Assembly: GCA_964651115.1 (NCBI GenBank)
Contig: CAZYXJ010000001.1
Coordinates: forward strand, 213,077 to 277,076
Length of the DNA: 64,000 bases
Direction: 5' to 3'
Source: an uncultured Candidatus Saccharibacteria bacterium
GTDB taxonomy: Bacteria; Patescibacteriota; Minisyncoccia; Phycocordibacterales; JACOZG01
Shown: positions 3,498-59,133 of the stretch, in pieces
Layout: each line of letters begins with the position of its first letter
Numbering within the stretch: the first letter of the stretch is position 1
The notes under the pieces: generated by a model
Told to the model about the DNA's origin: nothing
The model's input: only the letters and a program-made list of their open reading frames with translations
The model's database searches: none
Position numbers and translations under genes: made by a program

Positions 3498-4475
3498 TTA
3501 AGCGGCCGTCACCAAATTGGGCGGCGTCTGGCCCGCCAGCGCCGCCAAAATATTGTCGGCCGCCAAACGAGCCATGTCGTCTCGGGTCTCAAAAGTAGCG
3601 GAGGCAATGTGTGGCGTTAAAACGACGTTAGGTAAATCCTTCAACCCCGCCGCCAGAGTGGGCTCATTTTCATAAACATCCAAGCCCGCACCGGCGATCT
3701 GGCCAGAACGCAAGGCCTCCACCAGCGCGGCCTCGTCAATCACCGGACCACGAGCCGTATTTACGATTACCGCACTCGGCTTCATTAACGCCAGCCGCTC
3801 GCGATTAATCAAATGGCGCGTCTCGGGCGTCAGATTAACGTGGAGCGAAACGTAATCCGCCACCGTCAACACCTCCTCCACCGTAGACTTAAACTCAGCG
3901 CCAAATTCTTTCTCAAATTCTTCGTTCCGCTTAACGTCAAAGTAGACCACCTTCATGCCAAAACCGCGGGACGCAAAGTGAGCCAACTTAGAACCAATCC
4001 GACCGGCGCCGACAATGCCAAGCGTCCGGCCATAAAGATCTGGGGTCAAAAAAATCATTGGCGCCCAGCCGACATACTTGCCGTCGCGGACAAATTGATC
4101 CGCCTCGACGATCCGCCGCCCCACCGCCACCAGAAGAGCCAAGGCATGCTCAGCGACGCTCTGACTGGTCGAGGGCGCGGGCGTGTTGGTGATCATCACG
4201 CCACGCTTTTTGGCCTCAACCAGATCAACGTTATCAAAACCCACCGCGTAGTTAGCAAAAATCTTCGCTGTCGGGACGGCCTCAAAAACTTCGGCATCAA
4301 TCTTGTCGGTCAAGAGCGGTAAAACGGCGTCATACGGCTTAGCCCGAAGCGCGGTTAATAACTCCTCGCGCGAGAGAAGGCCATCCTTAGGGCTCACGTC
4401 CACCTCGTGCCCCTTCTCGCGCAACATCTGTTCTGCCAAATCCGGAATTTTCCGGGTAATGTAAATTTTTCCCAT
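3498..4475 (-). CDS. D-isomer-specific 2-hydroxyacid dehydrogenase (glyoxylate/hydroxypyruvate reductase-like)
   Basis: Rossmann GIVGAGRIGSKLA, and RGPVIDEAAL...GAGLDVYENEP...PHIASAT catalytic-region pattern. Confidence 0.85.
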   Translation of the reverse strand: MGKIYITRKIPDLAEQMLREKGHEVDVSPKDGLLSREELLTALRAKPYDAVLPLLTDKIDAEVFEAVPTAKIFANYAVGFDNVDLVEAKKRGVMITNTPAPSTSQSVAEHALALLVAVGRRIVEADQFVRDGKYVGWAPMIFLTPDLYGRTLGIVGAGRIGSKLAHFASRGFGMKVVYFDVKRNEEFEKEFGAEFKSTVEEVLTVADYVSLHVNLTPETRHLINRERLALMKPSAVIVNTARGPVIDEAALVEALRSGQIAGAGLDVYENEPTLAAGLKDLPNVVLTPHIASATFETRDDMARLAADNILAALAGQTPPNLVTAA

Positions 4476-4487
4476 TTATTAATTGTA

Positions 4488-5504
4488 TCATAAGGATTCA
4501 ATTTTTCTTCTAAGTTTCCAACCATTGCCGTGATCCAATAAACCCAAATATGATTGAACTGTCTCCGACTTAACTCCTGCTTTATTTATCCGTTTAAACA
4601 TTCGTCGTCTTGTCATAGTCCGCAGAACACGATGTTTTGAAAATTGGACCCACCCTAGAAAATCAACACCAGAGGAAACTCGCTCGAGAAGAATTTTGTT
4701 GGGATGAAACTCTAACTTCAGTTTCTCTTTTAAGAATTCGGCAATTTCGGGTGCGAGCTTGACTAGACGATCTTTATCGCGACCAACAATGACAAAATCG
4801 TCCGCGTAGCGAAGATAATGCCTCGCTTTCAAGCTATGCTTCATAAACTGATCGAGCTCGTTTAGATAAACATTGGCAAAAAGTTGGGAAGTAAGATTAC
4901 CGAGAGGCAGGCCCTGGCCGGGTACGCCCGAATTAAAACTGTAAATTATTTTCTCGATCAGCCAGATAATACCCTGGTCAGGAATCTTTTTCCTCAATAA
5001 ATCGATCAGTATTGCTCGATCGATGCTAGCAAAAAATTTGCGAATGTCACACTTCAAAACCCAAACCATTTTGGTGTTGTTTCGAGAAAGCTTGGCCGTA
5101 ATTAGGGCAAATTTTTTAATTGCTTTGTGAGTACCTTTTCCGTTGCGACAAGAATAGGAGTCAGAAATAAATCTTGGATGGAAAAACCAGTAAAGCCGGC
5201 GATAAACGGCTCGATGTAAAACCCGATCACGCACGGATGCCTTATGGATCACTCGCCGCTTGGGGTCGTTAATGATGAAAACTTTGTAAGCCGAATGATG
5301 GTATGTCTTAGCCACTAAATCCTCGTGAAGTGAAATAATGTTGGCCATCAGGTTTCGTTCAAATTCCTGCACGTCTTTTCGATTCCGTTTCCCTCTCACG
5401 AATTCCTGCCAGGCCGCGAGCAGATTAGCGAGCGAGACGATATTGTCATATTTTATGGTAGGTGCTATCTTGGCCGAAAATGCTACCGGTAAGCCCCCCC
5501 CCAA
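4488..5504 (-). CDS. DGR-type reverse transcriptase
   Basis: RT motifs including YADDFVIV. Has LGNLTSQLFANVYLNELD (the [ILV]GxxxSQ variant typical of DGR RTs). Lies next to the TR/VR pair. The only in-frame start is TTG at 5504, inside a G9 run. Confidence 0.85.
   Translation of the reverse strand: MGGGLPVAFSAKIAPTIKYDNIVSLANLLAAWQEFVRGKRNRKDVQEFERNLMANIISLHEDLVAKTYHHSAYKVFIINDPKRRVIHKASVRDRVLHRAVYRRLYWFFHPRFISDSYSCRNGKGTHKAIKKFALITAKLSRNNTKMVWVLKCDIRKFFASIDRAILIDLLRKKIPDQGIIWLIEKIIYSFNSGVPGQGLPLGNLTSQLFANVYLNELDQFMKHSLKARHYLRYADDFVIVGRDKDRLVKLAPEIAEFLKEKLKLEFHPNKILLERVSSGVDFLGWVQFSKHRVLRTMTRRRMFKRINKAGVKSETVQSYLGLLDHGNGWKLRRKIESL
5494..5502. repeat. Homopolymer C9 (+) / G9 (-) tract at the RT start codon
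   Basis: Counted directly: aagCCCCCCCCCaacc. On the minus strand it reads TTG GGG GGG GGC. Confidence 0.9.
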
Positions 5505-5513
5505 CCGAAGTTA

Positions 5514-5906
5514 TTGCCTCTTTTGCAAAAGGTGAAGATTGCATACTTATTGTGGTATGAATATTACCAAATTTTGCCAAAAACACATCGACACTCACTC
5601 GGTAAGAAAATTGATACGTTGTGGATCGAGATTATCGAAGCCATTGCGATTGCAAGCTATTTAGGCAAAGGAGAGAAACAACCCTGGGTGAGATTGGCAA
5701 TAAGGAAAACTGATACACTCAAGATATTGCTCTTGGTACTTTGGGAAACTAAATCACTGGATAATAAAAAATATATCGCCCTGTCTTTACCCCTGGAGGA
5801 AATTGGCAAAATGCTTGGCGGTTGGAATGGGCAAATTTTGAGACAATTACAACAAGAACAATTAAAGAAAAACTCTCCCACCAAAGCAGGAGAGAAAATG
5901 AAGTGA
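5514..5906 (+). CDS. avd: Avd-like DGR accessory protein (four-helix-bundle, 23S rRNA-IVS protein family-like)
   Basis: 130 aa, all-helical pattern (KIAYLLWYEYYQILPKTHRHSLGKKID...IEAIAIASY...LKILLLVLWE...IGKMLGGW) with a basic tail. Wedged between RT and TR. TTG start at 5514, or GVG-type GTG at 5529. Confidence 0.7.
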   Translation: MPLLQKVKIAYLLWYEYYQILPKTHRHSLGKKIDTLWIEIIEAIAIASYLGKGEKQPWVRLAIRKTDTLKILLLVLWETKSLDNKKYIALSLPLEEIGKMLGGWNGQILRQLQQEQLKKNSPTKAGEKMK

Positions 5907-5907
5907 G

Positions 5908-6029
5908 TTGCGACGAAACGCAAACCAGTCATTGGAGTTACCGTAGTTCTCGAGCCAGTTGAGGTTCGCCTTGCGCCTCGAGTCGTTCCACCAAACGTTG
6001 CACGCCTGGCGATCGCCATCGAAGAAATA
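5908..6029 (-). repeat. DGR template repeat (TR)
   Basis: 122 bp matching 6408-6529. All 22 differences fall at its minus-strand adenines. In frame it carries seven AAY codons. Confidence 0.88.
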
Positions 6030-6275
6030 GTGTAAGGTGTCATCCGAGTCACCATCTCTTGTCGCCAACACAGGACGATTCGAGATCGAATATTATTCGG
6101 CATCTATAATGCCCTAGCACTCTACACCAAGTAGCTTCATTTTTTATTGAAGGATCTGCGTAAATCCTCCGTCGGAAATCGTAATCGCCGACGCTCTCAA
6201 TTTACAGACACTGGTTTCAGTAGCGAGCAACCCTGATCGCCCACATATTCACCTACTCCCGTCTTTAATTTTAGC

Positions 6276-6305
6276 AAAGAAAAATCCCACACGCGAAGTG
6301 TAGGA
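6276..6305 (-). terminator. Hairpin plus T-run downstream of the DGR target gene
   Basis: Minus strand: TCCTACAC-TTCGC-GTGTGGGA (8 bp, one G-U pair) followed by TTTTTCTTT. Lies 84 nt after the stop codon. Confidence 0.5.
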
Positions 6306-6388
6306 TTCCATTGTTTACGTTTTGGATTACGTTTGGCAAAAATTGCCGAAGAGCAAAATCCAAAGGATCTGAAAAATCTCCAAGGACC

Positions 6389-7048
6389 TTAGGCCTGAGG
6401 ACGAAGCTTGCGACGAAACGCAAACCAGTCACCGGAGCGACCGCAGACCTCGAGCCAGCAGAGGCGCGCCCCGCGCCCCGAGTCGCCCCACCAAACGCGG
6501 CACGCCAGGCGAACGCCAACGAAGAAACACTCCTTGGTGGCCACCACATACATCGGGTCTAATCCCAGTTCCCGATGAAGAGTGGGATAATGTTCGCCAA
6601 TAGCGAACACTTCTCGTGGGTCAGTGCGCTCGAGTCCGAACTGCTCCGCCCAAGCGATAGCCTTGCTCCAGTTGCCACCCCGTGGGAAGTTGAGAAGGAT
6701 GATTTCCTCCTCTTCTTCCACACCTTCTCCCGGCGGATACTGGTCGCCCACCTTCCGGACGTTGTAGTCCAAAGGAGTGTTGGGACCGGCGGCATTCAGC
6801 GCTTCCGACCACTTGCGTCCTTTGTTGAAGCGAACGCGGATCGTGTGGATGCGAGCGCCCGGTGGCGGGATAAGCGGTAAGCCAATGGTGATCGGTAGCC
6901 CAGCCTCGATTCCATCGAGAACACGACCCAGAGTTCCATCGTCAAGTGCCGTTTGCAGGCGGGCTCGACTCATCTTTTTGTCCCGTACCATTTGAACAAA
7001 CTGTCTTCCCTGACCATCGGTCGCGGTTACAACCTTTTCAGTGGTCAT
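6389..7048 (-). CDS. DGR variable (target) protein, C-terminal CLec/DUF1566-like variable region
   Basis: 219-aa ORF whose last ~40 codons are the VR. No N-terminal signal or TM segment. Scaffold reads ...VWWGDS...WFAFRR. Confidence 0.85.
   Translation of the reverse strand: MTTEKVVTATDGQGRQFVQMVRDKKMSRARLQTALDDGTLGRVLDGIEAGLPITIGLPLIPPPGARIHTIRVRFNKGRKWSEALNAAGPNTPLDYNVRKVGDQYPPGEGVEEEEEIILLNFPRGGNWSKAIAWAEQFGLERTDPREVFAIGEHYPTLHRELGLDPMYVVATKECFFVGVRLACRVWWGDSGRGARLCWLEVCGRSGDWFAFRRKLRPQA
6408..6529 (-). repeat. DGR variable repeat (VR)
   Basis: Copy of the TR offset by exactly 500 bp. 22 of 27 TR adenine positions are substituted and 0 of 95 other positions differ. Ends 17 nt before the stop codon. 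Confidence 0.88.
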
Positions 7049-7146
7049 AACTATACCTTTCTTAACATGCCCCCTTTAAGCCCCAGCCACAAGCTGAGAC
7101 CAGAAGCGGGCAAAATGCGTGTTTTACATCAAAGAACTACATTTAT

Positions 7147-7176
7147 AATATACACTCATTTATGCCGAGTTGTCAA
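7147..7176 (-). promoter_or_regulatory. Candidate sigma70-type promoter for the DGR target gene
   Basis: Minus strand TTGACA (7171-7176), N18, TATATT (7147-7152). About 95-nt leader. GAAAGG Shine-Dalgarno before the ATG. Confidence 0.3.
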
Positions 7177-7203
7177 GCCGGCTGAATCTGCTAGAATATG
7201 GCT

Positions 7204-8067
7204 CTAAATGTGGCTAAAAAGTTTTAATTTTTGCTCAACGAGCTTGGTCATTGCCGCCAGGGCTGGCTTTAAGAATTTGCAAGGCGCAACCTCATCAGGA
7301 TTTTCTTGCAACGATAGTTTAAGGCCGTCGCGGTAAGCCACGCGCAGCTCGGTATTGATGTGGACAACGGCAACACCACCCTCGATCGCGCCACGAAAAT
7401 CGCTCTCGCTATTACCCGAGCCGCCATGCAGAACCAGAGGCACACCCGCCGCCGCCCGGATGGCGGCAATACGCGCCAGATCGAGCTTGGGATCAGGTCG
7501 GCCGCGCAACATCCCGTGGATGTTGCCGACGGCTGGCGCCAAAAGGTCAACGCCCGTGGCCACCACAAACTCGGCGGCCTGCTCGGGCTTAGTCAGATCG
7601 TCACCGAGCGCGGCGCCAGCCGGCACCTCGTCGAGCACCTTCGACGAGGTGCCAATATAACCCAGCTCGCCCTCCACCAGCACGTCCCGACCACTAGAAT
7701 GCGCGTACTCCACCACCTTACGAGCGGTCGCCACATTCTCCTCAAACGGTAATTGCGCGCCGTCAAAAATAACCGCGTCAAAACCAGCGTCAATGGCCTC
7801 GACTGCTCGCTCGTAAGAATAAGTATGGTCGGCATTAAGAAAAATCGGGTAGGCAAATTGTTCGCGCAGACTCTTAACCAACGTCGCGATCTGCCGAACG
7901 CCAATAAAGTCTCGCTCGCCCTCCGAAACGCCGATGATCACCGGCAGAGAGAGAGCGCGCGCGGCATTAAATACTGCCCAGACCGCATTAGAATCCGAAA
8001 TATTAAAATGCCCCACCGCCACCCGACGCTCCGCCGCCTCTAGAATGTATTCTCGTAACGTTTTCAT
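7204..8067 (-). CDS. fba: Class II fructose-bisphosphate aldolase
   Basis: Start moved to ATG 8067 (MKTLREYILEA). VAVGHFN, FLNADHT, LVLHGGSG motifs. Confidence 0.9.
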   Translation of the reverse strand: MKTLREYILEAAERRVAVGHFNISDSNAVWAVFNAARALSLPVIIGVSEGERDFIGVRQIATLVKSLREQFAYPIFLNADHTYSYERAVEAIDAGFDAVIFDGAQLPFEENVATARKVVEYAHSSGRDVLVEGELGYIGTSSKVLDEVPAGAALGDDLTKPEQAAEFVVATGVDLLAPAVGNIHGMLRGRPDPKLDLARIAAIRAAAGVPLVLHGGSGNSESDFRGAIEGGVAVVHINTELRVAYRDGLKLSLQENPDEVAPCKFLKPALAAMTKLVEQKLKLFSHI

Positions 8068-37320: not shown

Positions 37321-38004
37321 CTAAGCGGTGGGAACGGGAATCGCGGTAACGTCACGAAAGCGGAGGATGCTAGAACTATGATCCCAACCACACCCGACGT
37401 CTTCAAGGTCGATACTATCCCGGCCCAGCTCGCCCGCATCAAAATGGCGAGATAGCGATGGCACCAAATGGCCCTGAACAGGATGTTGATACAGACGCTC
37501 CTTCTTATCAAAAGAGGTCCAGAATAACATCCTAGGAAAATCCCTTCGACACTTCTGCCAGATAATGGCGATCCCCTGAATGCCAGTAAGAAGACCATTC
37601 TTACCAGAAGCCAGCTCCAGGCACTCCTCAAATCCCATCACCCGACGCGGCTTAATGTCAAAAACATCCACCTCGTAGGCGTGGCCGGGAATGAGACGAT
37701 GACTCGGCTCACGGTAATGTTCGTCACCAATTACCTCTTTTGAACACAGAAACAAACTATTGGGCAACTTCGACAGAGCCGTAGCGTGTTCGTAATCGAC
37801 ATCGACAACGAAAGAGAGGGTGAGGCGTAAATAAAAAGGCGGACCGTCAAAACGCCAATCACCAATGAATTTCGCCACCACATCACCGAGTCCGGGAGCA
37901 TTGTTGACACGCTCGGCCTCGTCTTTGGACAGACGGGCCTTGTTGTAAGCCTCTGCCACCAGCTTAAGGAACTGGCGGCCTTCGGGACCGTCGGCCTGAA
38001 CCAT
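37321..38004 (-). CDS. Hypothetical protein, probable diverged non-diversified paralogue of the DGR target
   Basis: 227 aa with no signal peptide. Shares segments with ORF 6389-7048: DGxxGRQF..V at the N-terminus, V.K..GD..Y, E..(I/V)....PR, and a C-terminal ..RFR tail. AAGGAGG Shine-Dalgarno. Confidence 0.55.
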   Translation of the reverse strand: MVQADGPEGRQFLKLVAEAYNKARLSKDEAERVNNAPGLGDVVAKFIGDWRFDGPPFYLRLTLSFVVDVDYEHATALSKLPNSLFLCSKEVIGDEHYREPSHRLIPGHAYEVDVFDIKPRRVMGFEECLELASGKNGLLTGIQGIAIIWQKCRRDFPRMLFWTSFDKKERLYQHPVQGHLVPSLSRHFDAGELGRDSIDLEDVGCGWDHSSSILRFRDVTAIPVPTA

Positions 38005-44307: not shown

Positions 44308-45327
44308 TTAATTACCAGTTAAGATCGTTGGCTGGCCACCTTTAATTTGCTTCATGATAATCGGGCGGGTGTAGATGCCGCTAGCGTTAAACTTGGCGCC
44401 TGAGAGAAGATTACTTTTGACACAGCTGTAATCACCCTTACACTCCGTAACAGCTTGGACCAAAACCTCGGTTGCTTGTTTGGAGAGTCCAAAAACCGCC
44501 CCCTCGCTACCCTCCAAATCGCCAGGGAACGAATAAATCACATCGGGTACTAACTCACGCACGGCCGGTAATTCCGCTACGTAAGTTGTATAGACCGGCA
44601 CCATCACTTTAAGTTGGCGGAGCTTGGGTACGCCGCTGCCAAAGAAGAAGGAGATATCAGGTGAGTAGATAGCGTCAACGCCAGCTTTGCTAATCTTTAA
44701 TACCTCCGGCGAGAGATCAACAGTCTCGTCGGTTAAAACAACGTCTTGAGCGATTGTGCCCTTAAAGTTTTTACGGAAGCTGTCGGCGTGAGTCTGAGAG
44801 AAGGCGTTTTTAAAGCTCACCAGCGCCACCTTGCGATGACCACGAGCAAACATTTGCTCAGCCACAAACTTCGACTCCTCTTGGAGAGAATACTGGATAT
44901 TGAAGAAGTTGTTGCCGCTAGCCGCATACAAATCTGAGGAAGCGGCGGCTGGTACAATGGACAGAACCTCCTTACCCTTTAAAAGCGGCACAACCGCCTC
45001 TTGAGGCGAGCCGCAGGCGGGACCAATGATGTATTTAGCTTTATCAAACTCCGCTAATTTTTGATAAGCAGTTACCGCCACCTTTGGGTCACATTGATCA
45101 TCCTCAAAAATCAAACTAACAGCCGTCGTACTCCCAACACCAGCCTGCACACCTCGGCGGACCTCCTCACCATAATCAGCCAGTGGACCAGTAAGCGGCG
45201 CGATTACTCCTATTTTGACAGGTTCGCTTGTGCCCACAGGGCCATCTTTTTTAACCGCCACGCCAATACCCCACACCACCAGAATAATGACAATGATCGC
45301 GATTATAATTTTTGCTGTGTTGGACAT
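44308..45327 (-). CDS. Type I periplasmic-binding-fold substrate-binding protein (LivJ/K-like), anchored - paralogue 1
   Basis: N-terminal uncleaved TM anchor with no lipobox Cys. VKIGVIAPLTGPLADYG pattern. Confidence 0.78.
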   Translation of the reverse strand: MSNTAKIIIAIIVIILVVWGIGVAVKKDGPVGTSEPVKIGVIAPLTGPLADYGEEVRRGVQAGVGSTTAVSLIFEDDQCDPKVAVTAYQKLAEFDKAKYIIGPACGSPQEAVVPLLKGKEVLSIVPAAASSDLYAASGNNFFNIQYSLQEESKFVAEQMFARGHRKVALVSFKNAFSQTHADSFRKNFKGTIAQDVVLTDETVDLSPEVLKISKAGVDAIYSPDISFFFGSGVPKLRQLKVMVPVYTTYVAELPAVRELVPDVIYSFPGDLEGSEGAVFGLSKQATEVLVQAVTECKGDYSCVKSNLLSGAKFNASGIYTRPIIMKQIKGGQPTILTGN

Positions 45328-45337
45328 GGTGTTTTTG

Positions 45338-46081
45338 CTATTCTCCTAAATATGCCTCAATTACTTCTGGCTTTTTTAAAACTTCTTCTGGTAAACCTTG
45401 GGCCAAGAGCTGGCCGGCGTCCATCACGATTAAGTGATCACACAACTCGCGGATTAAATCCATGTTGTGCTCGACTAAAATAATAGTTTTACCTGCCGCC
45501 CGGAGCTCTTTAATTACGCTCACCACTGTTTTAATCATCTCAGGAAAGAGTCCGGCAAATGGTTCATCAAGAAAAATGATGGAGGCCGCGTTGTCACTAG
45601 CCGAGACCATCGCGAGCACGCGCGCGATCTCCAAGAGCTTGCGCTGACCATAAGAGAGATTAGCGGCTAACTCCCCGCGCTTCTCCCACAGACCAACTTT
45701 TTTAAGGGCCGCCTCAGCCTGAGCCACATGAAAATCTTTGTGCTTCTCAAACAGTGAGGCAAAAGTGTTCCGCTCTGTTAGGACCACCAAGATGTTATCG
45801 AGCACCGGCATTTGCTCAAAGAGTCGTACGTCTTGGAAGGTGCGGGTTACGCCGTACTCGGCTGACTCATAAGCGCGCAAGCGCGAGAGCTCAACGCCAG
45901 AAATTACGATCGCCCCCGCCTCAAACGGGAACATGCCAGTGAGAGTATTGATAAGAGTCGATTTGCCCGAGCCGTTGGGACCGATCACGCCAGTGATCTT
46001 GCCGGCAGCAAATTCAACCGAGAGCCGGTCTACCGCCTTAACCCCGTCAAATTGTTTGGAGAGACCGTGGGTTTTAAGCAT
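45338..46081 (-). CDS. livG: ABC transporter ATP-binding protein (LivG-like)
   Basis: Walker A GPNGSGKST, signature LSYGQRKLLE, Walker B IFLDEPFAG. Confidence 0.82.
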   Translation of the reverse strand: MLKTHGLSKQFDGVKAVDRLSVEFAAGKITGVIGPNGSGKSTLINTLTGMFPFEAGAIVISGVELSRLRAYESAEYGVTRTFQDVRLFEQMPVLDNILVVLTERNTFASLFEKHKDFHVAQAEAALKKVGLWEKRGELAANLSYGQRKLLEIARVLAMVSASDNAASIIFLDEPFAGLFPEMIKTVVSVIKELRAAGKTIILVEHNMDLIRELCDHLIVMDAGQLLAQGLPEEVLKKPEVIEAYLGE

Positions 46082-46120
46082 CGTAGCCTAATTAAATAGG
46101 ATGTTGCCCCGACCGTCAAA

Positions 46121-46846
46121 TTACCGTTTTGGTCTAATTGAATAGCAAACCCAGGTGTAACCCAGGGCATTATTGTAGCGCCTGCCGACAACCTCACAAC
46201 CACAATCGCTAACTAAGTTCTCCAGCACCACAAAATCAGCATTGGGATCTTTAGTATTTGCGCTTTGCAGGTTAGAGTGAGTTAAGAGTATGTAGCCGCC
46301 TGGATTAATATGGTCTCTGGCCTCCTCAAATAGTCTTCGGTGCAGGACCATCCCCGGATCATAGAGCGCTGCGGTGATGCTTGTTTTTTCTGTGGGGACA
46401 GCGTTCGTAATGGGCAGATTAGCAATTATCCGATCATATTTTTTATTCCCCATTGCTGAGAAGAGATCACTTACGAATACCGATATTGTGTCTTCTAGAC
46501 CATTTAGTTGAACATTATGTTTGCTGCAAGCTACCGCCTCCGGAATAAGATCCACAGCATCAACGTGTTTGGCCCCTTTAATAACTGCCGCAATTGATTC
46601 GACACCAGTACCGCAACCGATGTCAGCAACATCCAAACCGCTCAAATCACCAAGAGCTTCATATAATGTGCGAGAGGACACGGAGTGATCAGCGGCCGGC
46701 GGAAAAATGCCAGGGAAGACATCGATTAAGATAATTTTGCCATCGATTTCGACATTCACCCGATAAGTTCCTTGGGCTTTCTTGCGCTCCAGTTCTTTGA
46801 CCATTCCCTGGGTCTGCGGGGAATCAGCTTGTGGTTTGATTTCCAT
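46121..46846 (-). CDS. SAM-dependent methyltransferase (MTS / HemK-RsmC-like small domain)
   Basis: Motif I VADIGCGTGVESI. Degenerate motif IV IIANLPIT. Confidence 0.72.
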   Translation of the reverse strand: MEIKPQADSPQTQGMVKELERKKAQGTYRVNVEIDGKIILIDVFPGIFPPAADHSVSSRTLYEALGDLSGLDVADIGCGTGVESIAAVIKGAKHVDAVDLIPEAVACSKHNVQLNGLEDTISVFVSDLFSAMGNKKYDRIIANLPITNAVPTEKTSITAALYDPGMVLHRRLFEEARDHINPGGYILLTHSNLQSANTKDPNADFVVLENLVSDCGCEVVGRRYNNALGYTWVCYSIRPKR

Positions 46847-48006
46847 TACTCAGCCTTCACGAATTTACCCTCACGAACAGTCTTCATTTCAAAGGCTTCG
46901 ACTGGAGTCTCAACAAAACCCTTGTCATCAAACTCAATGAGAGGAATAGATACACTGCCCTCAAACCTCACCTTCTCTAAACCTGATCGAACATTCTCTC
47001 GATTAATTTCTTGGCCAGACTCAACAAGGCCCTTCATCACCTCCGCCAGAACCAAAACTGCGTTGTAAGAGGTAACAGCCGATGGCGACAATGGCTTTAG
47101 ATTAAATCTAGCTTCGTACGCCTTCTCAAACTGATCATAACCATGAGACTGGCTTGGCGTTGCAAAATATAGACGGTTTTGCATCAGCTCTGGGCATTCG
47201 CTCAAAGCTTTTGGCGTTCCGGCAGACTCGGTGGAGAGAAGAGGTAAAGGCGCTCCAAGTTCCTTAGACTGAGCCAAAAAGACACATTCCAACTCGGCAA
47301 AAGCGCCAAAGAAGGCGTCTGGGGATTTGGCCTTAGCCTTGCTAATCAAAGTTCGATAATCAGTAACGGCATAGTCCGTACCCATTTCTTTAGCCACCAC
47401 AGTAATACCAAATTCTGGCGCATTTTTTTCAACCAAGTTAGCAGTAAAAAGCCAGAAGCTAAAGTTTGCTGGCTGGACAATGGCAATCTTTTTCCAGCCC
47501 TTATTTTGAGCAAACTTGAGTAATTCTCTAATCCCCACTTCGTTCTTGGGCCAAGTAACAAAGAAATAAGGTGAGTTAACTTTAGACTCAATGTAGGTTG
47601 AGACATTGGGGCTCACCACTGGAGTTTTGTCAGCTGAAGAGATGGCAGCCACTACCTCGCCGTTACCGTCCCACTGAGGACCAACAATAGCGACTACATT
47701 ATCAACTGCAATTAACTTCTTGGCCGCTGCCGCTCCGCGTTTAAGATCAAGACCAGGAGCGTCTTCTGAAACCATTTCTATTTTCTTGCCACCCACCCCA
47801 CCTTGAGCATTTACTTCTTCCACCGCTAGCAGAGCCCCGTTCTTTTCCTCTGCACCAATTTCAGCGCCTAAGCCAGATTGCCCAGACATCTGCCCGATCT
47901 TGATAACCTCCGCCGAGACTGAATTAGGATTTTTGCTCTTGCTCGCCCAAACTCCCAGCCCCACCACCACCAGAATTATGACGATCCAAATTATTGTTTT
48001 TTTCAT
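46846..48006 (-). CDS. LivJ/K-like substrate-binding protein, anchored - paralogue 2
   Basis: MKKTIIWIVIILVVVGLGVW anchor. IKIGQMSGQSGLGAEIG...AVEEVNAQGG. Confidence 0.78.
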   Translation of the reverse strand: MKKTIIWIVIILVVVGLGVWASKSKNPNSVSAEVIKIGQMSGQSGLGAEIGAEEKNGALLAVEEVNAQGGVGGKKIEMVSEDAPGLDLKRGAAAAKKLIAVDNVVAIVGPQWDGNGEVVAAISSADKTPVVSPNVSTYIESKVNSPYFFVTWPKNEVGIRELLKFAQNKGWKKIAIVQPANFSFWLFTANLVEKNAPEFGITVVAKEMGTDYAVTDYRTLISKAKAKSPDAFFGAFAELECVFLAQSKELGAPLPLLSTESAGTPKALSECPELMQNRLYFATPSQSHGYDQFEKAYEARFNLKPLSPSAVTSYNAVLVLAEVMKGLVESGQEINRENVRSGLEKVRFEGSVSIPLIEFDDKGFVETPVEAFEMKTVREGKFVKAE

Positions 48007-48009
48007 AGT

Positions 48010-48732
48010 TTATTTAATTCCCACAACAACAGCTTCCATCATTTTGCGATAAACCGTTTCCACACCCTTAAAACCAATCGAAGTCATAAACGTTTTTGCC
48101 TCCCCTTCAAAAAACACCAGATCTTCTTGTTCGTCACGTTCCATGTGTGCAAGCCACTCTTTTTTGTAATCCGACCGACCAATGGTGTCGTAAATGTCAT
48201 ATTTGGCAATTTGTTCTCTATAAATCTCTTGTCGCTTTTCTGGATCATCATGGGCATACTTATCACCATTAACAAAAATGCCACCCGGCTTTAAGACCCT
48301 GAAGATTTCTGAAATTATCTGTCGACGAAAGTTTTGTTCAAAATTATGGATCACGAAACCAGAAGCTACGGCATCAAATGATGAGTCTGGTATATTCTTC
48401 AAATATTCTCCGACCTCACTTTCAATTACCGTCACCCGATTGGAAGCTTGCCAACGATTAAGATTATCCTGGATTTGATCAATCATTTTTTTCTCATTAT
48501 CAACAGCCACAACGCGTACACGAGAATCTGAGTCAAGTAGAAACTTGGTAGTAATCCCGGTCCCACATCCGACCTCCATAGTTACAATACTCCCCACCTG
48601 AGAATCCTTGAAGTGCTCGCGGATAGCTTGCCCAACCGCCTGCTGAAGTTCATCATAGTGCGGGTAAGCCAACTTCAAAAGCTCATACTCTTCGCCCAGG
48701 ATATTATTAAATCTTTGATCGTTAGAAGTCAT
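48010..48732 (-). CDS. Class I SAM-dependent methyltransferase
   Basis: Motif I MEVGCGTGITT, plus LKPGGIFV. Confidence 0.78.
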   Translation of the reverse strand: MTSNDQRFNNILGEEYELLKLAYPHYDELQQAVGQAIREHFKDSQVGSIVTMEVGCGTGITTKFLLDSDSRVRVVAVDNEKKMIDQIQDNLNRWQASNRVTVIESEVGEYLKNIPDSSFDAVASGFVIHNFEQNFRRQIISEIFRVLKPGGIFVNGDKYAHDDPEKRQEIYREQIAKYDIYDTIGRSDYKKEWLAHMERDEQEDLVFFEGEAKTFMTSIGFKGVETVYRKMMEAVVVGIK

Positions 48733-48737
48733 TTTAT

Positions 48738-49847
48738 TTATTTCAGAGGAATAATTCTATTTTTCTCAACTTTAAAGAACAGCACTGGTTTATGAGCATT
48801 GCCGTCATCATCAAAAGTCATCGTGCCAGATGCGCCAACAAACTCTTTAATATTACTGAGAGATTTAGCAACTAGCTCTGGATCAGTCGACCCGACATCG
48901 CTGATCGCCTTGATGTATAGGTTAAATGCATCATAAGCCTGATTAGCCGGAAAACCAACCTCTCGCTGATATTTAGATTGGAATTTTTTATTAAACGCAC
49001 TATCAACTGTATCAGTAGAAACAAAGATCGTTCCTTCCAAAGAACCTTGGGCTTGATCGATCGTAGGCTGAAACAACAATACAGAGAAAAATGGGATCGT
49101 CATCCCTAAATCTCGCAGCCGCTGGGCAGAAACGGCCGTTTGTCCATAATTAGTAAAAACAACGGCCTCTGGATTAGACGTTTTTATCTTCGTTGCTTCG
49201 GTTCGCAAATCTTTGTTGTCGACGGTAGGCAGTTGAATTGAGACTACGGCTCCACCAAGCTCTTCAAATTTTTTCTTTACAAAATTAGCCTGGTCCATCT
49301 CCCACTCTTGCTGAGAGCCAAATATAGCAATCTTTCGAAATCCTCTTTGCTTATAGAGATACTCGGCCAAGGTAAAACTATCAAATTTGTTAGGCGGAAA
49401 AACATCAAAAGTTCTTGGACTCATTTCAGCAAATTTTTCTGACCCGACTGACGGAGAAATAATTACTACGTTTGCCTTTTCTGCTACAGGAGCCAACACC
49501 GTCGCTGTGGGAGTGAAATCCGGACCAATTATCAAACGCACATCACGATTTATTAGGTTATAAAGCGCCGATAATCCACCTTTGGGATTATCGCCAAGAT
49601 TATCCTCATAAACCATTTCAACCGGTCGGCCCAATACGCCTCCAGCTTGATTAACTTCTCCAACAGCCAGATCAATACCTCGTTTGGCATTCTCACCGGT
49701 ATCAGCAAAGTTACCGGTTAAATTGAGGATTGCGCCAATCTTAATTGGGCCATCAGTATTATTTGACATCTGCCCATCACGATAAAACCACGCCCCCAAC
49801 CCAACCAGCACTAGAATTATGACAACCCAAATAACGATTTTTTTCAT
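48738..49847 (-). CDS. LivJ/K-like substrate-binding protein, anchored - paralogue 3
   Basis: MKKIVIWVVIILVLVGLGAW anchor. IKIGAILNLTGNFADTGENAKRGIDLAVGEVNQAGG. Confidence 0.8.
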   Translation of the reverse strand: MKKIVIWVVIILVLVGLGAWFYRDGQMSNNTDGPIKIGAILNLTGNFADTGENAKRGIDLAVGEVNQAGGVLGRPVEMVYEDNLGDNPKGGLSALYNLINRDVRLIIGPDFTPTATVLAPVAEKANVVIISPSVGSEKFAEMSPRTFDVFPPNKFDSFTLAEYLYKQRGFRKIAIFGSQQEWEMDQANFVKKKFEELGGAVVSIQLPTVDNKDLRTEATKIKTSNPEAVVFTNYGQTAVSAQRLRDLGMTIPFFSVLLFQPTIDQAQGSLEGTIFVSTDTVDSAFNKKFQSKYQREVGFPANQAYDAFNLYIKAISDVGSTDPELVAKSLSNIKEFVGASGTMTFDDDGNAHKPVLFFKVEKNRIIPLK

Positions 49848-49850
49848 ATT

Positions 49851-50930
49851 TTATTCTAGATCTGTTAGCTGACCACCTTTTACCGCCATAATTTTAGTTT
49901 CTGGCTTGCGATTACCGGTGCCGTCAAACTCGATCTTGCCGCCCACACCCGCAAAGTTTGCAGCCTTAAGATTTTTGACCCAAGTGGCCTGATTAGCGTC
50001 ATAGGTTGCGACCAGCAAATTAAACGCATCGTAGCCGATATCAGACAAAAAGCCAGGATCAGCATTAAAGCGAGCTTTGTACTTAGCTTTAAACTCATCG
50101 GCCACGTCCGACTTTACCGTTCCGACAATCGTGCCATCAAGAACCTTCATATCACCCAAGATACGCTGGTAATCAGAGAAGCCAGATTGGAAGTTGGTGT
50201 CAAAAAAGAATTGCGGATTATTTTTCTTAATCTTCAAAAATTCTTGCATAAAGCGAGCGCCCTGCTGCGGCACAATAAAGAGACCGATCGTACTGGAGTT
50301 GCTAGCGGCCACCTTTAAAGCGTGGGGTCGGAGATCCTTTTCGTCAGCCTGGATAACAAAATCAGTAGTTGTACCCTGGAAGCCTTGTTTAAAACTTTCT
50401 ACAAAGCGGACCATGGCATCAATATTGCTGTAGACAATCGCCATCTCTTTAACACCCTTCTCTCTCATATACACTCCGTACTCATACTCAGAAGCGATAC
50501 TGTTGGGCAAAATACCAAGCACGTTATCATCAGCCGGCTCTCGTCCCTGCTCGCCCATTTGGATAACCGGTAGATCGGTTGTCGTTACCGCACCATAAAT
50601 CGCATCGATCGTCGGCGTAGAAACATTGATCAGCGCCTGGATCTGATTGCTCGTAATCAATTTTTGATAAGCACTGAGTCCCTTGCCACCATTAAAGCCA
50701 TCATCCTCCATAAAAACATTTATCTTAGCATCAGGATGCGCTTGATTATATTCCTCACTAGCCAAAACAACGCCGTTGCGGATGTTCTCGCCGACGGCCG
50801 CGTAATCTCCGCTAAGAATGGCGATGAGTCCTAGATTAAAACTTTTAGCTTGCTGATTGTTGCCAGACCAAACAACCGCCCCGATCACAATAATGGCAAT
50901 GATAACTACCCAAATAATTATTTTTTTCAT
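49851..50930 (-). CDS. LivJ/K-like substrate-binding protein, anchored - paralogue 4
   Basis: MKKIIIWVVIIAIIVIGAVVW anchor. LGLIAILSGDYAAVGENIRNG. Confidence 0.78.
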   Translation of the reverse strand: MKKIIIWVVIIAIIVIGAVVWSGNNQQAKSFNLGLIAILSGDYAAVGENIRNGVVLASEEYNQAHPDAKINVFMEDDGFNGGKGLSAYQKLITSNQIQALINVSTPTIDAIYGAVTTTDLPVIQMGEQGREPADDNVLGILPNSIASEYEYGVYMREKGVKEMAIVYSNIDAMVRFVESFKQGFQGTTTDFVIQADEKDLRPHALKVAASNSSTIGLFIVPQQGARFMQEFLKIKKNNPQFFFDTNFQSGFSDYQRILGDMKVLDGTIVGTVKSDVADEFKAKYKARFNADPGFLSDIGYDAFNLLVATYDANQATWVKNLKAANFAGVGGKIEFDGTGNRKPETKIMAVKGGQLTDLE

Positions 50931-50935
50931 ATTGG

Positions 50936-52057
50936 TTACTTTAAAGTTACAAAATCTTGACCATTAAATGTTTGTAAAATGGGCAATTTATTAACTGGAT
51001 AATTTAGCTCGGGATAGTCTATCCTACCCGATGCCCCAACAAAATCAATTTGCCGGAGCCCAGTGAGAATAGATTCGGAATCAGTTTTACCGACCTCCTC
51101 GATAGCATATTTGACTGCATACACGGCATCATAGGCCGAATCAGCCTCTGCCAATGGGGATTTGTCAAATTTCTGTTGATATTTTTCTACAAAATCTGTC
51201 TTGGGCAAAGCCGGACGAAAAATAGAAATATCTTTTAACGAACCTGCAGAAATTTTTTTGTCGTAATAAGCGTTAGCAAAATTGGCATGCGCCAACACTG
51301 GCGCAGCAATACCAAGCTCCGTTCGTCTCTTAGAAAATGTTACAACATCATTATAGTTTAGAGCACCAAGAACAACATCGGCACCAGACGCCTTAATGAG
51401 AGACAACTCTCGCTGCATGTCATTATTATCAAATTTTGGCAGCACGACCTCCTTTACCAATACTCCGCCGGAATTTTCCAGCGCCTTCTTAAACATCTCG
51501 CCGTGAGCTTTTCCCCAATAATTGTTGGCATAAATAATAACTGCCTTGGGTTGTCGAAATTTTGATAAATATTTTTCGACAACTCCCCGATTACTAGAAA
51601 TTGCCATGTAAGTCGTAAAGTGATACGAGCTGGTTGACTCGATCATATCTTGGGACGCAGACGGCGTAATCAAAATCCGTTTTTGTGAATCAATCACGGG
51701 CATAACTGCGCCGGCCAAAAAGTCCCAGGTAGCGCCGATAATTACTGGGGCGTTATCGACAGAGATTAATTTGTTAACCACCGAAACAGCCTGTTTAGCT
51801 TCGGTGCCGTCATCCTCATAGATCACTTCGAGCGGTCGCCCCAAAACTCCTCCATCATTATTTATTTCTTCCACGGCAAGCGAGATCGCATTTTTCTGAT
51901 GCTCGCCGTAAATAGCTGCGATGCCCGTCATCGGTAAATCGGCTCCAATCTTAATCGGCTCACTGCTGGTTGGAGCGCTATCTCTTCGGCCAATTAGAAC
52001 TAAAATGAGGACTAAAACTACTACAATTACCACCCAAATTATGGCTTTTTTAGACAT
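50936..52057 (-). CDS. LivJ/K-like substrate-binding protein, anchored - paralogue 5
   Basis: TM anchor. IKIGADLPMTGIAAIYGEHQKNAISLAVEEINNDGG. Confidence 0.8.
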   Translation of the reverse strand: MSKKAIIWVVIVVVLVLILVLIGRRDSAPTSSEPIKIGADLPMTGIAAIYGEHQKNAISLAVEEINNDGGVLGRPLEVIYEDDGTEAKQAVSVVNKLISVDNAPVIIGATWDFLAGAVMPVIDSQKRILITPSASQDMIESTSSYHFTTYMAISSNRGVVEKYLSKFRQPKAVIIYANNYWGKAHGEMFKKALENSGGVLVKEVVLPKFDNNDMQRELSLIKASGADVVLGALNYNDVVTFSKRRTELGIAAPVLAHANFANAYYDKKISAGSLKDISIFRPALPKTDFVEKYQQKFDKSPLAEADSAYDAVYAVKYAIEEVGKTDSESILTGLRQIDFVGASGRIDYPELNYPVNKLPILQTFNGQDFVTLK

Positions 52058-52123
52058 GACTCTAGTCTAGCAAGCTCGGGTGAACTGTAAAGCAAAAGTT
52101 GACTATACTGGTTTTATTGCCCG

Positions 52124-53239
52124 TTATGGCAAACGGTCAATCGTCTGCAACTTACCCTCAACCACTTTTTTGATTACCAGAGGCGGGATCCGGATACCAT
52201 TCTCATCAAACTGGACCTTGCCGCTCGCGCCCATCGTATTGGTCTTTTTAAGATTGGCAACCCACTTTGAGCTATCACTATCATAGGCATTGAGATAGGT
52301 CATAAAGGTGTCGTAGCCGTAATCAGCCAAAAAACCAGGCTCTTCGTTAGGATACATTTTCTTGAAGGCGTTGTAGAACTCCTTGTACTCTTGCGAATTT
52401 AAGTCACCCTCCATCCCCAAAGCAATGGCCCCATTAATTTTAGTTAGATTTTCTCCGAGTTGATCCTGATAATAGGAAGTCCCTGTCGTAAGTTGGATAT
52501 CGTAAACAAGCTGTGTTCCAGAGTTAAGAAGCGGCAACAATTCTTTTGTCAGAATCGCCCCGTTCTCCGGCGTCATAATAAAGACAACCGTTGTTGGTTT
52601 GGCTGCGGCGATCTTAGCGGCATCACTTCTTAGCGAATTTTTGTCTGACGAGGCAACAAAGGTAGTAACTGGCTTGCCGTACTCTTTTACAAAAGCTTTA
52701 GCAAAAGAGTCCTGAGCGGCATCAATAGAATGAACAACAACTACTTTAGATTCGTTAAAGCCCGCGCCCTTAATGTAGGTGCTAAAACGATCCCAGACAT
52801 TATCATTCCCTTGGGTCATCTGGAAAACGTAGTCATCGGCAACATTGTTGGCCTGGAAGGCAACCATCATGACGGGAAATCCCGCGGCCTTACCCGGCTC
52901 GTAAATAGAGTCCATCGTTGTGGTAAAGAAGTTGATTAACCCCCCAACATTGTCCTGGGTGGTAAGTTTGCGATAAGCGCTTAAGCCTTTGGCGCCATCA
53001 CCGCCATCGTCCTCCACAACAATCTCAATATTATTTCCCGTGTCTTCTTGATAAACCTGCTGCGCCACTTTTAGACCCTTTAAAGTATTTTCTCCCACTG
53101 CGCCAAAATCACCAGTTAGCGACATGACGGCACCAATCTTCAGCCCAGAGGTCTCGGGGTTCTTCGAACCTACAGTAATGATCGCCCCGACAATAATTGT
53201 CATGACAACAATCGCCAAAATTATTTTTGATTTTTTCAT
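52124..53239 (-). CDS. LivJ/K-like substrate-binding protein, anchored - paralogue 6
   Basis: TM anchor. LKIGAVMSLTGDFGAVGENTLKG. Confidence 0.78.
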   Translation of the reverse strand: MKKSKIILAIVVMTIIVGAIITVGSKNPETSGLKIGAVMSLTGDFGAVGENTLKGLKVAQQVYQEDTGNNIEIVVEDDGGDGAKGLSAYRKLTTQDNVGGLINFFTTTMDSIYEPGKAAGFPVMMVAFQANNVADDYVFQMTQGNDNVWDRFSTYIKGAGFNESKVVVVHSIDAAQDSFAKAFVKEYGKPVTTFVASSDKNSLRSDAAKIAAAKPTTVVFIMTPENGAILTKELLPLLNSGTQLVYDIQLTTGTSYYQDQLGENLTKINGAIALGMEGDLNSQEYKEFYNAFKKMYPNEEPGFLADYGYDTFMTYLNAYDSDSSKWVANLKKTNTMGASGKVQFDENGIRIPPLVIKKVVEGKLQTIDRLP

Positions 53240-53343
53240 AATAGCATTATACAGATGAGCTATTTTATTGTATATAGATGAGGCTCGGTTGGACCGTTTC
53301 TCAAAAATATGCTTATTTATAGCGCTGGAACGGTTTTTATAAT

Positions 53344-53372
53344 TTGACTAAAAATTAGTCACAAGCTATACT
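53344..53372 (+). promoter_or_regulatory. Promoter with embedded perfect palindrome (candidate TrmB-like autoregulatory operator)
   Basis: TTGACT (53344-53349), N17, TATACT (53367-53372). TGACTAA-AAA-TTAGTCA inverted repeat at 53345-53361. Confidence 0.45.
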
Positions 53373-53378
53373 CAGCTG

Positions 53379-54203
53379 ATGGGTAACAGCAACGCCATCT
53401 ATAACCTAATGGGCCTCACCGAGACCGAAAAGCGGATTCTGCGGGCACTCCAGTCAGCAAAAAACGTGCAAAACATTGCCCGCCAGACGGGTATCTCTCG
53501 AACGGGAATAAATTATTGTCTCAGTTCCCTACTTAAACGTAGTCTCGTGCGCATTATCCGTCAGGGCCGCAAAAGATTATTCATTGGCCTGACTAAGCTA
53601 GAACTTGTTAATTTGCTGCAAGAGGCCATCGACGGATCAAAAATCGAAGGGGCGGAAAAGAGGGGCGCGAGAGTCCGGTCCACCAAAGAGGACGAATTTG
53701 TTATCCATGTGGGAGCCAAAGAGATTATCCCCGCCTACACCCGCATCGCCTCCGCGAACAAAGATGAGCGCATTAAAGCCATCCAACACCATCGCTCTTA
53801 CAATGAACTATTAGAAAAAATCACCGCTACCCAGTTGGTTGCCTTCAATAAAACCATCATTAAAAATCGCCTCATTATCGAGGGGATGCTGAACGAAGGA
53901 GCTTATCAAGCCTACAAAGAAGAAGTTGGAACAAACCCGAACAAGTATAAGGACTCTATCGAAAGCCTAGAAGGACGGATGGCGGATTACACCTGCTTTC
54001 CCGACAATAAGTTTAACCATGATGCCGAGCTGTGGCTATTTAAAAATACTTCGCTTTTGATTAATTGGCACGATGAGGTGGCGATAGAAATTACTAACAA
54101 AAGTATGACCGCCTTTCTGAAAGATATGTTTGACTTCGTTAAAAAAGACGGCCACAAGATCGACCATAACCGAGCCGTGAGAAATGTTTTAACAAAAAAT
54201 TGA
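53379..54203 (+). CDS. TrmB-like winged-HTH transcriptional regulator
   Basis: LTETEKRILRALQSAKNVQNIARQTGISRTGINYCLSSLLKRSLV wHTH pattern. Divergent from an SBP operon. Confidence 0.68.
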   Translation: MGNSNAIYNLMGLTETEKRILRALQSAKNVQNIARQTGISRTGINYCLSSLLKRSLVRIIRQGRKRLFIGLTKLELVNLLQEAIDGSKIEGAEKRGARVRSTKEDEFVIHVGAKEIIPAYTRIASANKDERIKAIQHHRSYNELLEKITATQLVAFNKTIIKNRLIIEGMLNEGAYQAYKEEVGTNPNKYKDSIESLEGRMADYTCFPDNKFNHDAELWLFKNTSLLINWHDEVAIEITNKSMTAFLKDMFDFVKKDGHKIDHNRAVRNVLTKN

Positions 54204-54212
54204 TCTGGGGAT

Positions 54213-55091
54213 TTAAATCTTATACTCCCCGATCAGGCCTTGAGGGCGGTAGAGCATAAGGACGATTAGCAAGAGGCCATAGACGGCTTGGCGCATTTGC
54301 GCCGCAATATCGGTGGGAAAGCCCACAAAACGCAAGGCCTCAGGCAACAGGATCAAACAAACCGCCCCCAAAACTGAGCCGCGGAGATTGGCCAGTCCGC
54401 CGAGAATAATAATCGCCAGCAAAAAGATCGACTCATTAAGCGAGAAAGTGGAAGGATCAATAAAGGTGATATAAGAAGCAAAAAGTGAGCCTGCTAGTGC
54501 CGCCAATCCAGCACTAATTACAAAGATCAGAAGTTTGTAATTAAAGGTGTGATAACCAAACACCCGGATCGCCTCCTCGTCCTCACGAATCGCCTTTAAA
54601 ACTCGGCCAAACGAGGATTTAACAATCAAACGTGATACAAGGTAAACCAAAGCAAGCGCTACGGCGGTTAAAACCAGAAACTCAAGGTTTGAGTTAAGGT
54701 CCAATTTCCAATTACCAATTCCTAAGGAGGGGCGAGTAATCCCGGGGACACCCAAGGGGCCGCGAGTTACTGATTGCCAGTTGAGAAAGATACTATAAAT
54801 GATGATGTTGAAGCCAAAGGAGCCGAGAGCGTAAAAGTCTTCGCGGAAGCGCGAGAGCACCACGCCCACTACCACCGAGACCAACATCGCGATAATCATC
54901 CCGATCAAAGTTGCCAAGAAAAAGTTCAACCCCATTCCTGTTAGCAGCAGCGCTGTGGCGTAAGCGCCAATGCCATAAAAGGCGGCTTGAGTGATGGAAA
55001 GGAGACCAGTGTAGCCAACGATCAGATTTAAGCTGATCCCCAAGATCCCGTAGATACCGATCAGAATGGCTAAGTGGATTAAATATTCCAT
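54213..55091 (-). CDS. livM: Branched-chain-type ABC transporter permease (LivM-like)
   Basis: About 8 TM segments. GYTGLLSITQAAFYGIGAY pattern. Confidence 0.82.
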   Translation of the reverse strand: MEYLIHLAILIGIYGILGISLNLIVGYTGLLSITQAAFYGIGAYATALLLTGMGLNFFLATLIGMIIAMLVSVVVGVVLSRFREDFYALGSFGFNIIIYSIFLNWQSVTRGPLGVPGITRPSLGIGNWKLDLNSNLEFLVLTAVALALVYLVSRLIVKSSFGRVLKAIREDEEAIRVFGYHTFNYKLLIFVISAGLAALAGSLFASYITFIDPSTFSLNESIFLLAIIILGGLANLRGSVLGAVCLILLPEALRFVGFPTDIAAQMRQAVYGLLLIVLMLYRPQGLIGEYKI

Positions 55092-55093
55092 GG

Positions 55094-55972
55094 CTACTTT
55101 TTAAATAGACCCTGCGGGCGAAATAAAAGAAACAGAAGCAGGAGCACGAAGGCGATCGCATCCTTCCACTCCCCGGCCAACTTCCAAATCCCAAAATTTT
55201 CTACAAAGCCCAAAATAAAAGCCCCGATGATCCCACCCCAAATATTACCGGCGCCACCAATAATCGCCGCGATCACTCCTTTTAGGAGGAGTGATAACCC
55301 CATCGTTGGCTCGATACCGGTATCAAAGCCGATCATGATCCCCGCCAACCCAGCAATGGCCGAGCCGAGAAAGAAAACGGTGGCAATCACATTGCTGGTA
55401 TTGATCCCCACGATTTTAGAAACCTCTTCATCATCGCCCACGGCCCGGATGGCTTTACCGATCGCCGTGTATTTAAGAAAGAGTCCCAGCAGCACGCCGA
55501 TCACCAGGACCAGGGCCACAATAATAAGCTGGACCTGAGTGATTACGCCGCCGGCAATCTCGTAGACCTGACCGCTGCCGGCGGCGCGACTTAGGGTCTG
55601 GAACTGACTAGTAAAGAGCATGGCGATAATCGCCTGGAGCATGGTAAAGGCACCCAGGGAGGCAACTAGCAAAACCATGTTGGAAGCTTTGCGCTTCCGA
55701 AGCGGTCGATAAACTAGATAGTTAATCAAAAGCCCGATCAAACCAGCCACCAAGACGCCCAAAACCACCGCCCACCATAAGTCGCCACCAAGTTTTTTAT
55801 AAAAAAAGAAAACGGTATAACCACCCACTGCCGTGAGAGCACCATAACCAAGATCAAAAAACTTGACCGTACCAAAGATTAAATTAAAACCGAGCGCCAA
55901 GAGAGCATAGATGGCGCCAGCAATAATGCTATTAGCAACAAGTTGTGGCAAGATATCCATATATATTTTCAA
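55094..55972 (-). CDS. livH: Branched-chain-type ABC transporter permease (LivH-like)
   Basis: LVANSIIAGAIYALLALGFNLIFG is the typical LivH N-terminus. Confidence 0.82.
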   Translation of the reverse strand: MKIYMDILPQLVANSIIAGAIYALLALGFNLIFGTVKFFDLGYGALTAVGGYTVFFFYKKLGGDLWWAVVLGVLVAGLIGLLINYLVYRPLRKRKASNMVLLVASLGAFTMLQAIIAMLFTSQFQTLSRAAGSGQVYEIAGGVITQVQLIIVALVLVIGVLLGLFLKYTAIGKAIRAVGDDEEVSKIVGINTSNVIATVFFLGSAIAGLAGIMIGFDTGIEPTMGLSLLLKGVIAAIIGGAGNIWGGIIGAFILGFVENFGIWKLAGEWKDAIAFVLLLLFLLFRPQGLFKK

Positions 55973-56028
55973 CCAAACTATAACAGCAACCTGAGCTGAC
56001 TACAAATCAGGTCCGGAATAAAACAAGC

Positions 56029-57135: not shown

Positions 57136-57137
57136 AT

Positions 57138-57893: not shown

Positions 57894-57932
57894 CCAAACT
57901 ATACCTTATTCCTTGTATTGTTTCCAACGGTA

Positions 57933-59054: not shown

Positions 59055-59133
59055 CGTTTTAAACTATCATGAAGTTTTTCCAAACGCCAACCACCCGCCT
59101 CTCGGCGGGTGGTTGGGAATAAACCTTAATTTT

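Follow-up and report, generated by a model that had tools for sequence, protein, structure and literature searches.

The window analysed here is a 64,000-nucleotide (nt) stretch of an uncultured Candidatus Saccharibacteria genome (contig CAZYXJ010000001.1), and its open reading frame (ORF) at 6389..7048 on the minus strand encodes a 219-residue protein that is the target of a diversity-generating retroelement (DGR) and carries no recognizable export signal. We posit, with the chances evenly balanced, that this protein is a soluble, probably cytoplasmic, DGR-diversified C-type lectin (CLec) binder in a genome of the Patescibacteria, or Candidate Phyla Radiation (CPR). Functionally, the ORF would encode a small, soluble, Sec-independent protein that serves as the dedicated target of a chromosomal DGR, with a hypervariable face that may bind a changing ligand and with an invariant sub-region (AAGPNTP/YNVRKVGDQYPP) and an N-terminal module that could tie the binder to an unchanging partner or site. 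Since the protein lacks a signal peptide, its default location would be the cytoplasm.

The assignment as a DGR target comes from the cassette in which the gene lies. This is a complete DGR cassette, made up of the target, a template repeat (TR), an Avd-like accessory gene and a reverse transcriptase (RT), and its features are as follows.

6389..7048, minus strand: DGR target (variable protein) gene, 219 amino acids (aa), signal-less (from the ORF, its homologues and the AlphaFold model)
6408..6527, minus strand: variable repeat (VR), codons 175-213, with 13 codons unlike the TR (from repeat comparison and codon map)
5908..6027, minus strand: TR, with 26 adenines and 16 adenine-bearing codons, seven of them AAY (from repeat comparison and codon map)
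5514..5906, plus strand: Avd-like accessory gene, antisense to target, TR and RT (from profile matches in three libraries)
4488..5504, minus strand: DGR RT, 338 aa, intact, with LGNLTSQ and YADD motifs (RVT_1, E 1e-23; PHROG 1423, E 7e-107)

The TR and VR form a 120-nt direct repeat with 21 mismatches, all of which (21/21) fall at TR adenines (A>G 13, A>T five, A>C three), and the final ~23 nt of the repeat are the same in both copies. TR/VR differences confined to adenines are the signature of mutagenic retrohoming, in which reverse transcription of the TR RNA introduces errors specifically at adenines and the resulting cDNA replaces the VR. These adenine-only mismatches, together with the adjoining RT and Avd-like gene, bear out the target status that an earlier note on this DNA, made from the letters alone, had assigned to the ORF. 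An in-frame codon map placed the changes at aa 177-206, where 13 of the 16 adenine-bearing TR codons are altered in the VR, and the TR adenines give a theoretical repertoire of ~1e14. One TR codon is AAG, at the position equivalent to K193, and is mutable to a stop; in a related locus (L019, 6542-6660), this very codon reads TAG, in frame, in the VR and truncates the target, in what looks like a nonsense mutation made by the DGR. The conserved 3′ end of the TR, used as a query for a second VR in the window, recovered only the TR and VR themselves.

In the translation of 4488-5504, we take LGNLTSQ and YADD to be the DGR-RT motifs. The Avd-like gene matched PHROG 3206, “Avd protein of DGR” (E 1.7e-12), as well as bAvd (E 1.6e-9) and NCBIfam DivGenRetAVD (E 1.6e-14), the latter two at scores below their cutoffs (38.6 bits for a cutoff of 40, and 54 bits for one of 80, respectively). 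As an observation on the layout, this plus-strand gene is wedged between the minus-strand TR and RT, so that a TR-to-RT transcript would be antisense to avd; its position and strand are kept in 9 related loci, and this antisense placement of Avd distinguishes the cassette from the CPR “clade 2” DGRs surveyed previously. The cassette is flanked by housekeeping genes, including an aldolase, a PfkB kinase and a 2-hydroxyacid dehydrogenase (Pfam) and, presumably, genes for a release factor, L31, L25 and transketolase recognized by eye from their translations. It is chromosomal and not phage-borne.

The translation of 6389..7048, read directly, starts with MTTEKVVTATDGQGRQFVQMVRDKK and also holds PPGEGVEEEEEIILLNF, NWSKAIAWAEQFGLERTDPREVF, VWWGDS and WFAFRR; all the strings that the earlier note quoted are thus present verbatim, as is the length of 219 aa. 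In principle, the signal could seem to be missing because the start was mis-called or the gene truncated, and a phage receptor-binding protein was considered as well. An in-frame stop lies 9 codons 5′ of the ATG at 7048, with no alternative start in between, which rules out a longer N-terminus, and homologues of the same length align starting at residue 1, with a conserved N-terminus; the start is therefore not mis-called. The phage alternative is countered by the lack of a PHROG match for the target and by the housekeeping genes on its flanks. Nothing was found in favour of either idea, and we regard both as refuted, with a probability that is close to negligible.

We judged export signals with a Kyte-Doolittle hydropathy heuristic, for which anchors from the same window served as positive controls. 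The best 19-residue window anywhere in the target scores 1.34, and its polar N-terminus offers no charge-free hydrophobic stretch within the first 40 residues. As a reference, six genuine N-terminal anchors from the window score 1.85-3.3 over 19 residues and 2.6-4.1 over a charge-free 10-mer. By this heuristic, the target contains no Sec, Tat or lipoprotein h-region, no lipobox and no transmembrane (TM) segment, in agreement with the signal-less, anchor-less protein first described. That description had also held that most accessory proteins in the window are anchored; anchors are indeed common, but with N-terminal hydrophobic anchors in 26 of the 71 long window ORFs, the right word is “many” and not “most”. 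Signals of the Sec type thus stand out readily in this genome.

Structurally, an AlphaFold model of the target, built with a 42-sequence alignment (pLDDT 92.6, pTM 0.81), shows four parts: the N-terminal helices (11-48), a connector of lower confidence (~49-62), a compact core from residue 63 and a C-terminal unit. On the gene, the module and the core map as follows.

6899..7048, minus strand: N-terminal three-helix module, aa ~1-50 (helices 11-23, 28-36 and 39-48, from the secondary structure of the model)
6389..6862, minus strand: conserved core, aa ~63-219, a beta-alpha-beta sub-region followed by a CLec fold

The beta-alpha-beta sub-region carries the best-conserved motif of the family, AAGPNTP...YNVRKVGDQYPP, and the C-terminal part of the model is an alpha-alpha-beta4 unit. 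The EGVEEEEE run, read earlier as an acidic linker between two halves, did not hold up as such: in the model it is a confident loop (pLDDT ~94) that enters strand 111-120 inside the folded core and is not disordered. Superposition of the model on solved CLec domains recovered the CLec fold, with the following neighbours.

Structural neighbour Bd2740 fibre tip (8oks), value 7.1
Structural neighbour PvdO, value 5.8
Structural neighbour SUMF2, value 5.7
Structural neighbour Lcl C-terminal domain, value 5.1
Structural neighbour TvpA (DGR variable protein), value 4.6
Structural neighbour Mtd (DGR variable protein), value 4.5

Foldseek again ranked the Bd2740 fibre tip first, with no match reaching significance. 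At the sequence and profile level, the target had no significant match in Pfam, NCBIfam, PHROGs or the PDB, and neither the target nor 42 homologues matched any Pfam profile, DUF1566 included, at E <= 1. This separates them from the DUF1566/Lcl C-terminal domains and from the FGE-sulfatase type, a Pfam profile that is the usual annotation of DGR CLec domains and that the target does not match. Because there are structural matches but no sequence-profile match, the model supports a CLec fold for the target, albeit a divergent one; of the CLec/DUF1566 resemblance suggested earlier from the pattern of the C-terminal half, the CLec part is upheld by model and superposition, and DUF1566 membership is not. 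The CLec fold is the scaffold of other DGR variable proteins, and when the target was examined for a C-terminal VR on a CLec (or Ig) scaffold, such an arrangement was found, the variable residues being located, in the model, in the C-terminal strands of the CLec fold. For the N-terminal region, an HU-like viral histone identity was considered on the basis of a PDB profile match (E ~0.5) and set aside as chance.

Two of the structural neighbours are the solved DGR variable proteins, Mtd of Bordetella phage BPP-1 being a trimeric phage tail-fibre tip and TvpA of Treponema denticola a lipoprotein, both extracellular. With these, our target has in common a VR at the extreme C-terminus, AAY-rich TR codons and adenine-specific mutagenesis, whereas it is signal-less, less than two-thirds their size and without detectable sequence similarity to them. 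The Bd2740 tip (8oks) is a trimeric, Ca-independent CLec that its authors likened to Mtd; this C-terminal domain of a Bdellovibrio MAT fibre differs from the target in belonging to a 627-aa surface fibre that is not DGR-diversified, and the two are 7% identical.

The target belongs to a sizeable family. A word-indexed search yielded 106 homologues, none of them (0/106) with a Pfam domain, and an exhaustive profile search yielded 570 representatives at 50% identity, of which the best 150 were listed, with 247 sequences used for length and hydropathy. The latter span 134-429 aa (median 210, 5th-95th percentile 165-231 aa), and the listed members are nearly all stand-alone proteins of 134-260 aa that lack a Pfam domain, most of the family falling within 160-230 aa. 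The family core (profile positions ~47-207) is always present and the N-terminal module is variable or absent, with several types, so the helical module is, judging from these alignments, swappable within the family. Evolutionarily, all 19 loci in species-representative genomes (19/19) come from Patescibacteria metagenome-assembled genomes, with hosts that include Taylorbacteria, Wildermuthbacteria, Vogelbacteria and Paceibacterota and with RTs that are 51-58% identical, and the family is, as far as its sequences indicate, restricted to CPR/Patescibacteria.

The signature of mutagenesis extends through this family. Eight related loci share the order seen in the window (target, TR, antisense avd, RT); their TR/VR mismatches are adenine-only in five and lie at adenines in 13/14, 19/22 and 18/19 cases in the other three, and the TR adenine columns are conserved across 9 loci. 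Nine loci with full 6-kb flanks (L001, L006, L007, L009, L010, L011, L013, L017 and L018) show neither an RT nor a TR in the vicinity. Twelve members lacking a TR in the fetched locus have scrambled bases at the 23 conserved TR-adenine columns (A fraction 0.17-0.65) and are 77-88% identical to the TR consensus at non-adenine columns, as bona fide VRs are. All examined members, including those without a local retroelement, thus show the footprint of adenine mutagenesis, which argues that the entire family is a dedicated DGR target; the orphan members would either depend on a DGR acting in trans or be left over from one that has been lost. A separate observation concerns locus L002, which retains RT and avd with no detectable TR, and in which a ~130-nt leader is duplicated near-exactly (4330-4470 and 4860-5000) upstream of a 91-aa ORF and of the target homologue, each with a TTGACA...TATA-like promoter, a conserved stretch and an AGGAG site.

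Homologues with export signals, for which the earlier note had suggested looking, are rare. About 98% of the 247 representatives, the target included, are signal-less, and in 5-6 of the 247 (~2%) a hydrophobic signal or anchor replaces the helical module. P0192 has a lipoprotein-like signal (…LLCALGC…) in the place of the module, P0137 has a positively flanked signal anchor that predicts an outside location, P0223 has one TM segment, and P0210, at 429 aa, has several TM segments and a coiled coil. From these signals and anchors, the core of some relatives probably works on the outer side of the membrane, and the N-terminus appears to be an exchangeable site that can take different devices for targeting or docking. 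One type of N-terminal module in the family (P0071 type) has the pattern GRKF..V..AYNKAGLS.EEAQRVNN.PGL, and a profile search with the N-terminal module had as its sole match an 87-aa protein bearing the same module type. Elsewhere in the window, an orphan ORF of 227 aa (37321-38004, minus strand) begins with ~47 residues that are 57% identical over 46 aa to the P0071-type module (E 2e-14). This ORF has no Pfam match, a search of 5.8 billion proteins for its homologues returned only itself, and its single-sequence structure model was unusable (pLDDT 34). From such similarities, the module appears to be shuffled between proteins.

Surface adhesins for attachment are the usual idea for CPR episymbionts, and the target could likewise be exported non-classically or displayed on the surface, for instance by a helical module that docks on a pilus, an S-layer or another surface component, and act as a variable adhesin for attachment to host or partner cells. 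We give this explanation a real but minority share of the probability. The few members in which the very site of the module is taken by a lipoprotein signal or a membrane anchor suggest alternative localization devices, and the swapping of modules, including the type found on an unrelated ORF of the window, points the same way, as does the nature of the nearest solved folds, which are extracellular adhesin tips. Most cellular DGR targets are, moreover, membrane-bound binders (PMC8144416). Set against this, the great majority of the family is signal-less, no secretion, pilus or anchor gene occurs as a conserved neighbour, and library scans for a known docking domain found none.

Returning to a cytoplasmic binder, the intracellular reading that the earlier note advanced is plausible from the sequence evidence, and several points weigh against it: the localization is read from an absent signal as judged by a hydropathy heuristic; the best structural neighbours (the Bd2740 tip, Mtd and animal lectins) are extracellular adhesins; ~2% of the family carries a signal or anchor, with the core then probably on the far side of the membrane; and neither an effector domain in the protein nor a conserved partner gene in 23 loci explains how a binder in the cytoplasm would signal. 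Conserved neighbours in these 23 loci were none beyond the DGR parts. A DEAD-box helicase, seen in the first two loci and considered as a conserved neighbour, was rejected, occurring in only 4 of the 23, as two related pairs.

A more specific version, in which the family consists of hypervariable binders that stand alone and are genuinely cytoplasmic, amounting in these ultra-small bacteria to a minimal “intracellular antibody” whose module plugs the CLec head into various constant partners, and in which the head might recognize phage- or host-derived molecules inside the cell, we offer tentatively and consider rather doubtful. The target might instead do the sensing for an immune or conflict system inside the cell, as do the DGR-diversified CLec sensors that are fused to STAND NTPases or belong to ternary systems. 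Cytoplasmic DGR targets have been predicted in multicellular bacteria and proposed as putative antigen sensors (Doré et al. 2024, PMC10907252), and the absence of an export signal in our target fits such a role. With the STAND and ternary-system sensors it shares its status as a DGR target, a CLec variable domain and a predicted cytoplasmic location. However, those sensors are large, comprise many domains and have NTPases or effectors as partners, whereas no effector domain, be it an NTPase, a protease or another, occurs in the target or in a conserved neighbour across the 23 loci, so we consider this role unlikely. CPR and DPANN DGRs in clade 5 (5F) were described without conflict-system domains, with most CPR RTs forming a separate clade (Doré et al. 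2024, PMC10907252). The commonest CPR architecture is a CLec fused to an AAA ATPase (PMC10907252), from which the present sub-family differs in being stand-alone and ~200 aa long.

That CPR DGR targets typically lack membrane domains is documented, as is the question of where they reside, and the earlier note rediscovered both. CPR DGR variable proteins were first surveyed by Paul et al. 2017, according to papers that cite it. Roux et al. (2021) reported CPR targets that are typically without transmembrane or other domains and wrote that their genuinely non-membrane-bound status “remains to be established” (PMC8144416). With their CPR “clade 2” targets, ours shares a Patescibacteria host, a chromosomal cassette, a C-terminal VR and a CLec-type scaffold, and both lack TM segments, signal peptides and Pfam domains, a likeness drawn from the traits and host of the target. 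Should CPR targets be cytoplasmic, the task of targeted hypermutation in these reduced genomes would be internal recognition and not attachment. The locus is a clean, compact and confidently modelled representative (219 aa, one VR, a complete cassette and a housekeeping context) that suits expression, localization and binding work, and it also defines a family of ~570 representatives, in which the rare anchored members (P0192, P0137, P0223 and P0210) provide a natural contrast for a comparison of localization.

Around the cassette, candidate transcription signals were placed as follows, and an Rfam scan of 4400-7300 returned zero family matches.

7147..7176, minus strand: promoter-like site upstream of the target, TTGACA-18-TATATT, 11/12 matches (consensus match only)
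6281..6309, minus strand: terminator-like hairpin, ~80 nt past the target stop codon (consensus match only)
5873..5894, minus strand: GC-rich hairpin and T-run directly 3′ of the TR (predicted from sequence)

Further along the window, 44308-60252 holds about nine tandem paralogous ORFs of ~340-390 aa, each N-terminally anchored (MKK..IIWVVIIL...) and interleaved with ABC-transporter-like genes, which by eye resemble an expanded set of substrate-binding proteins.
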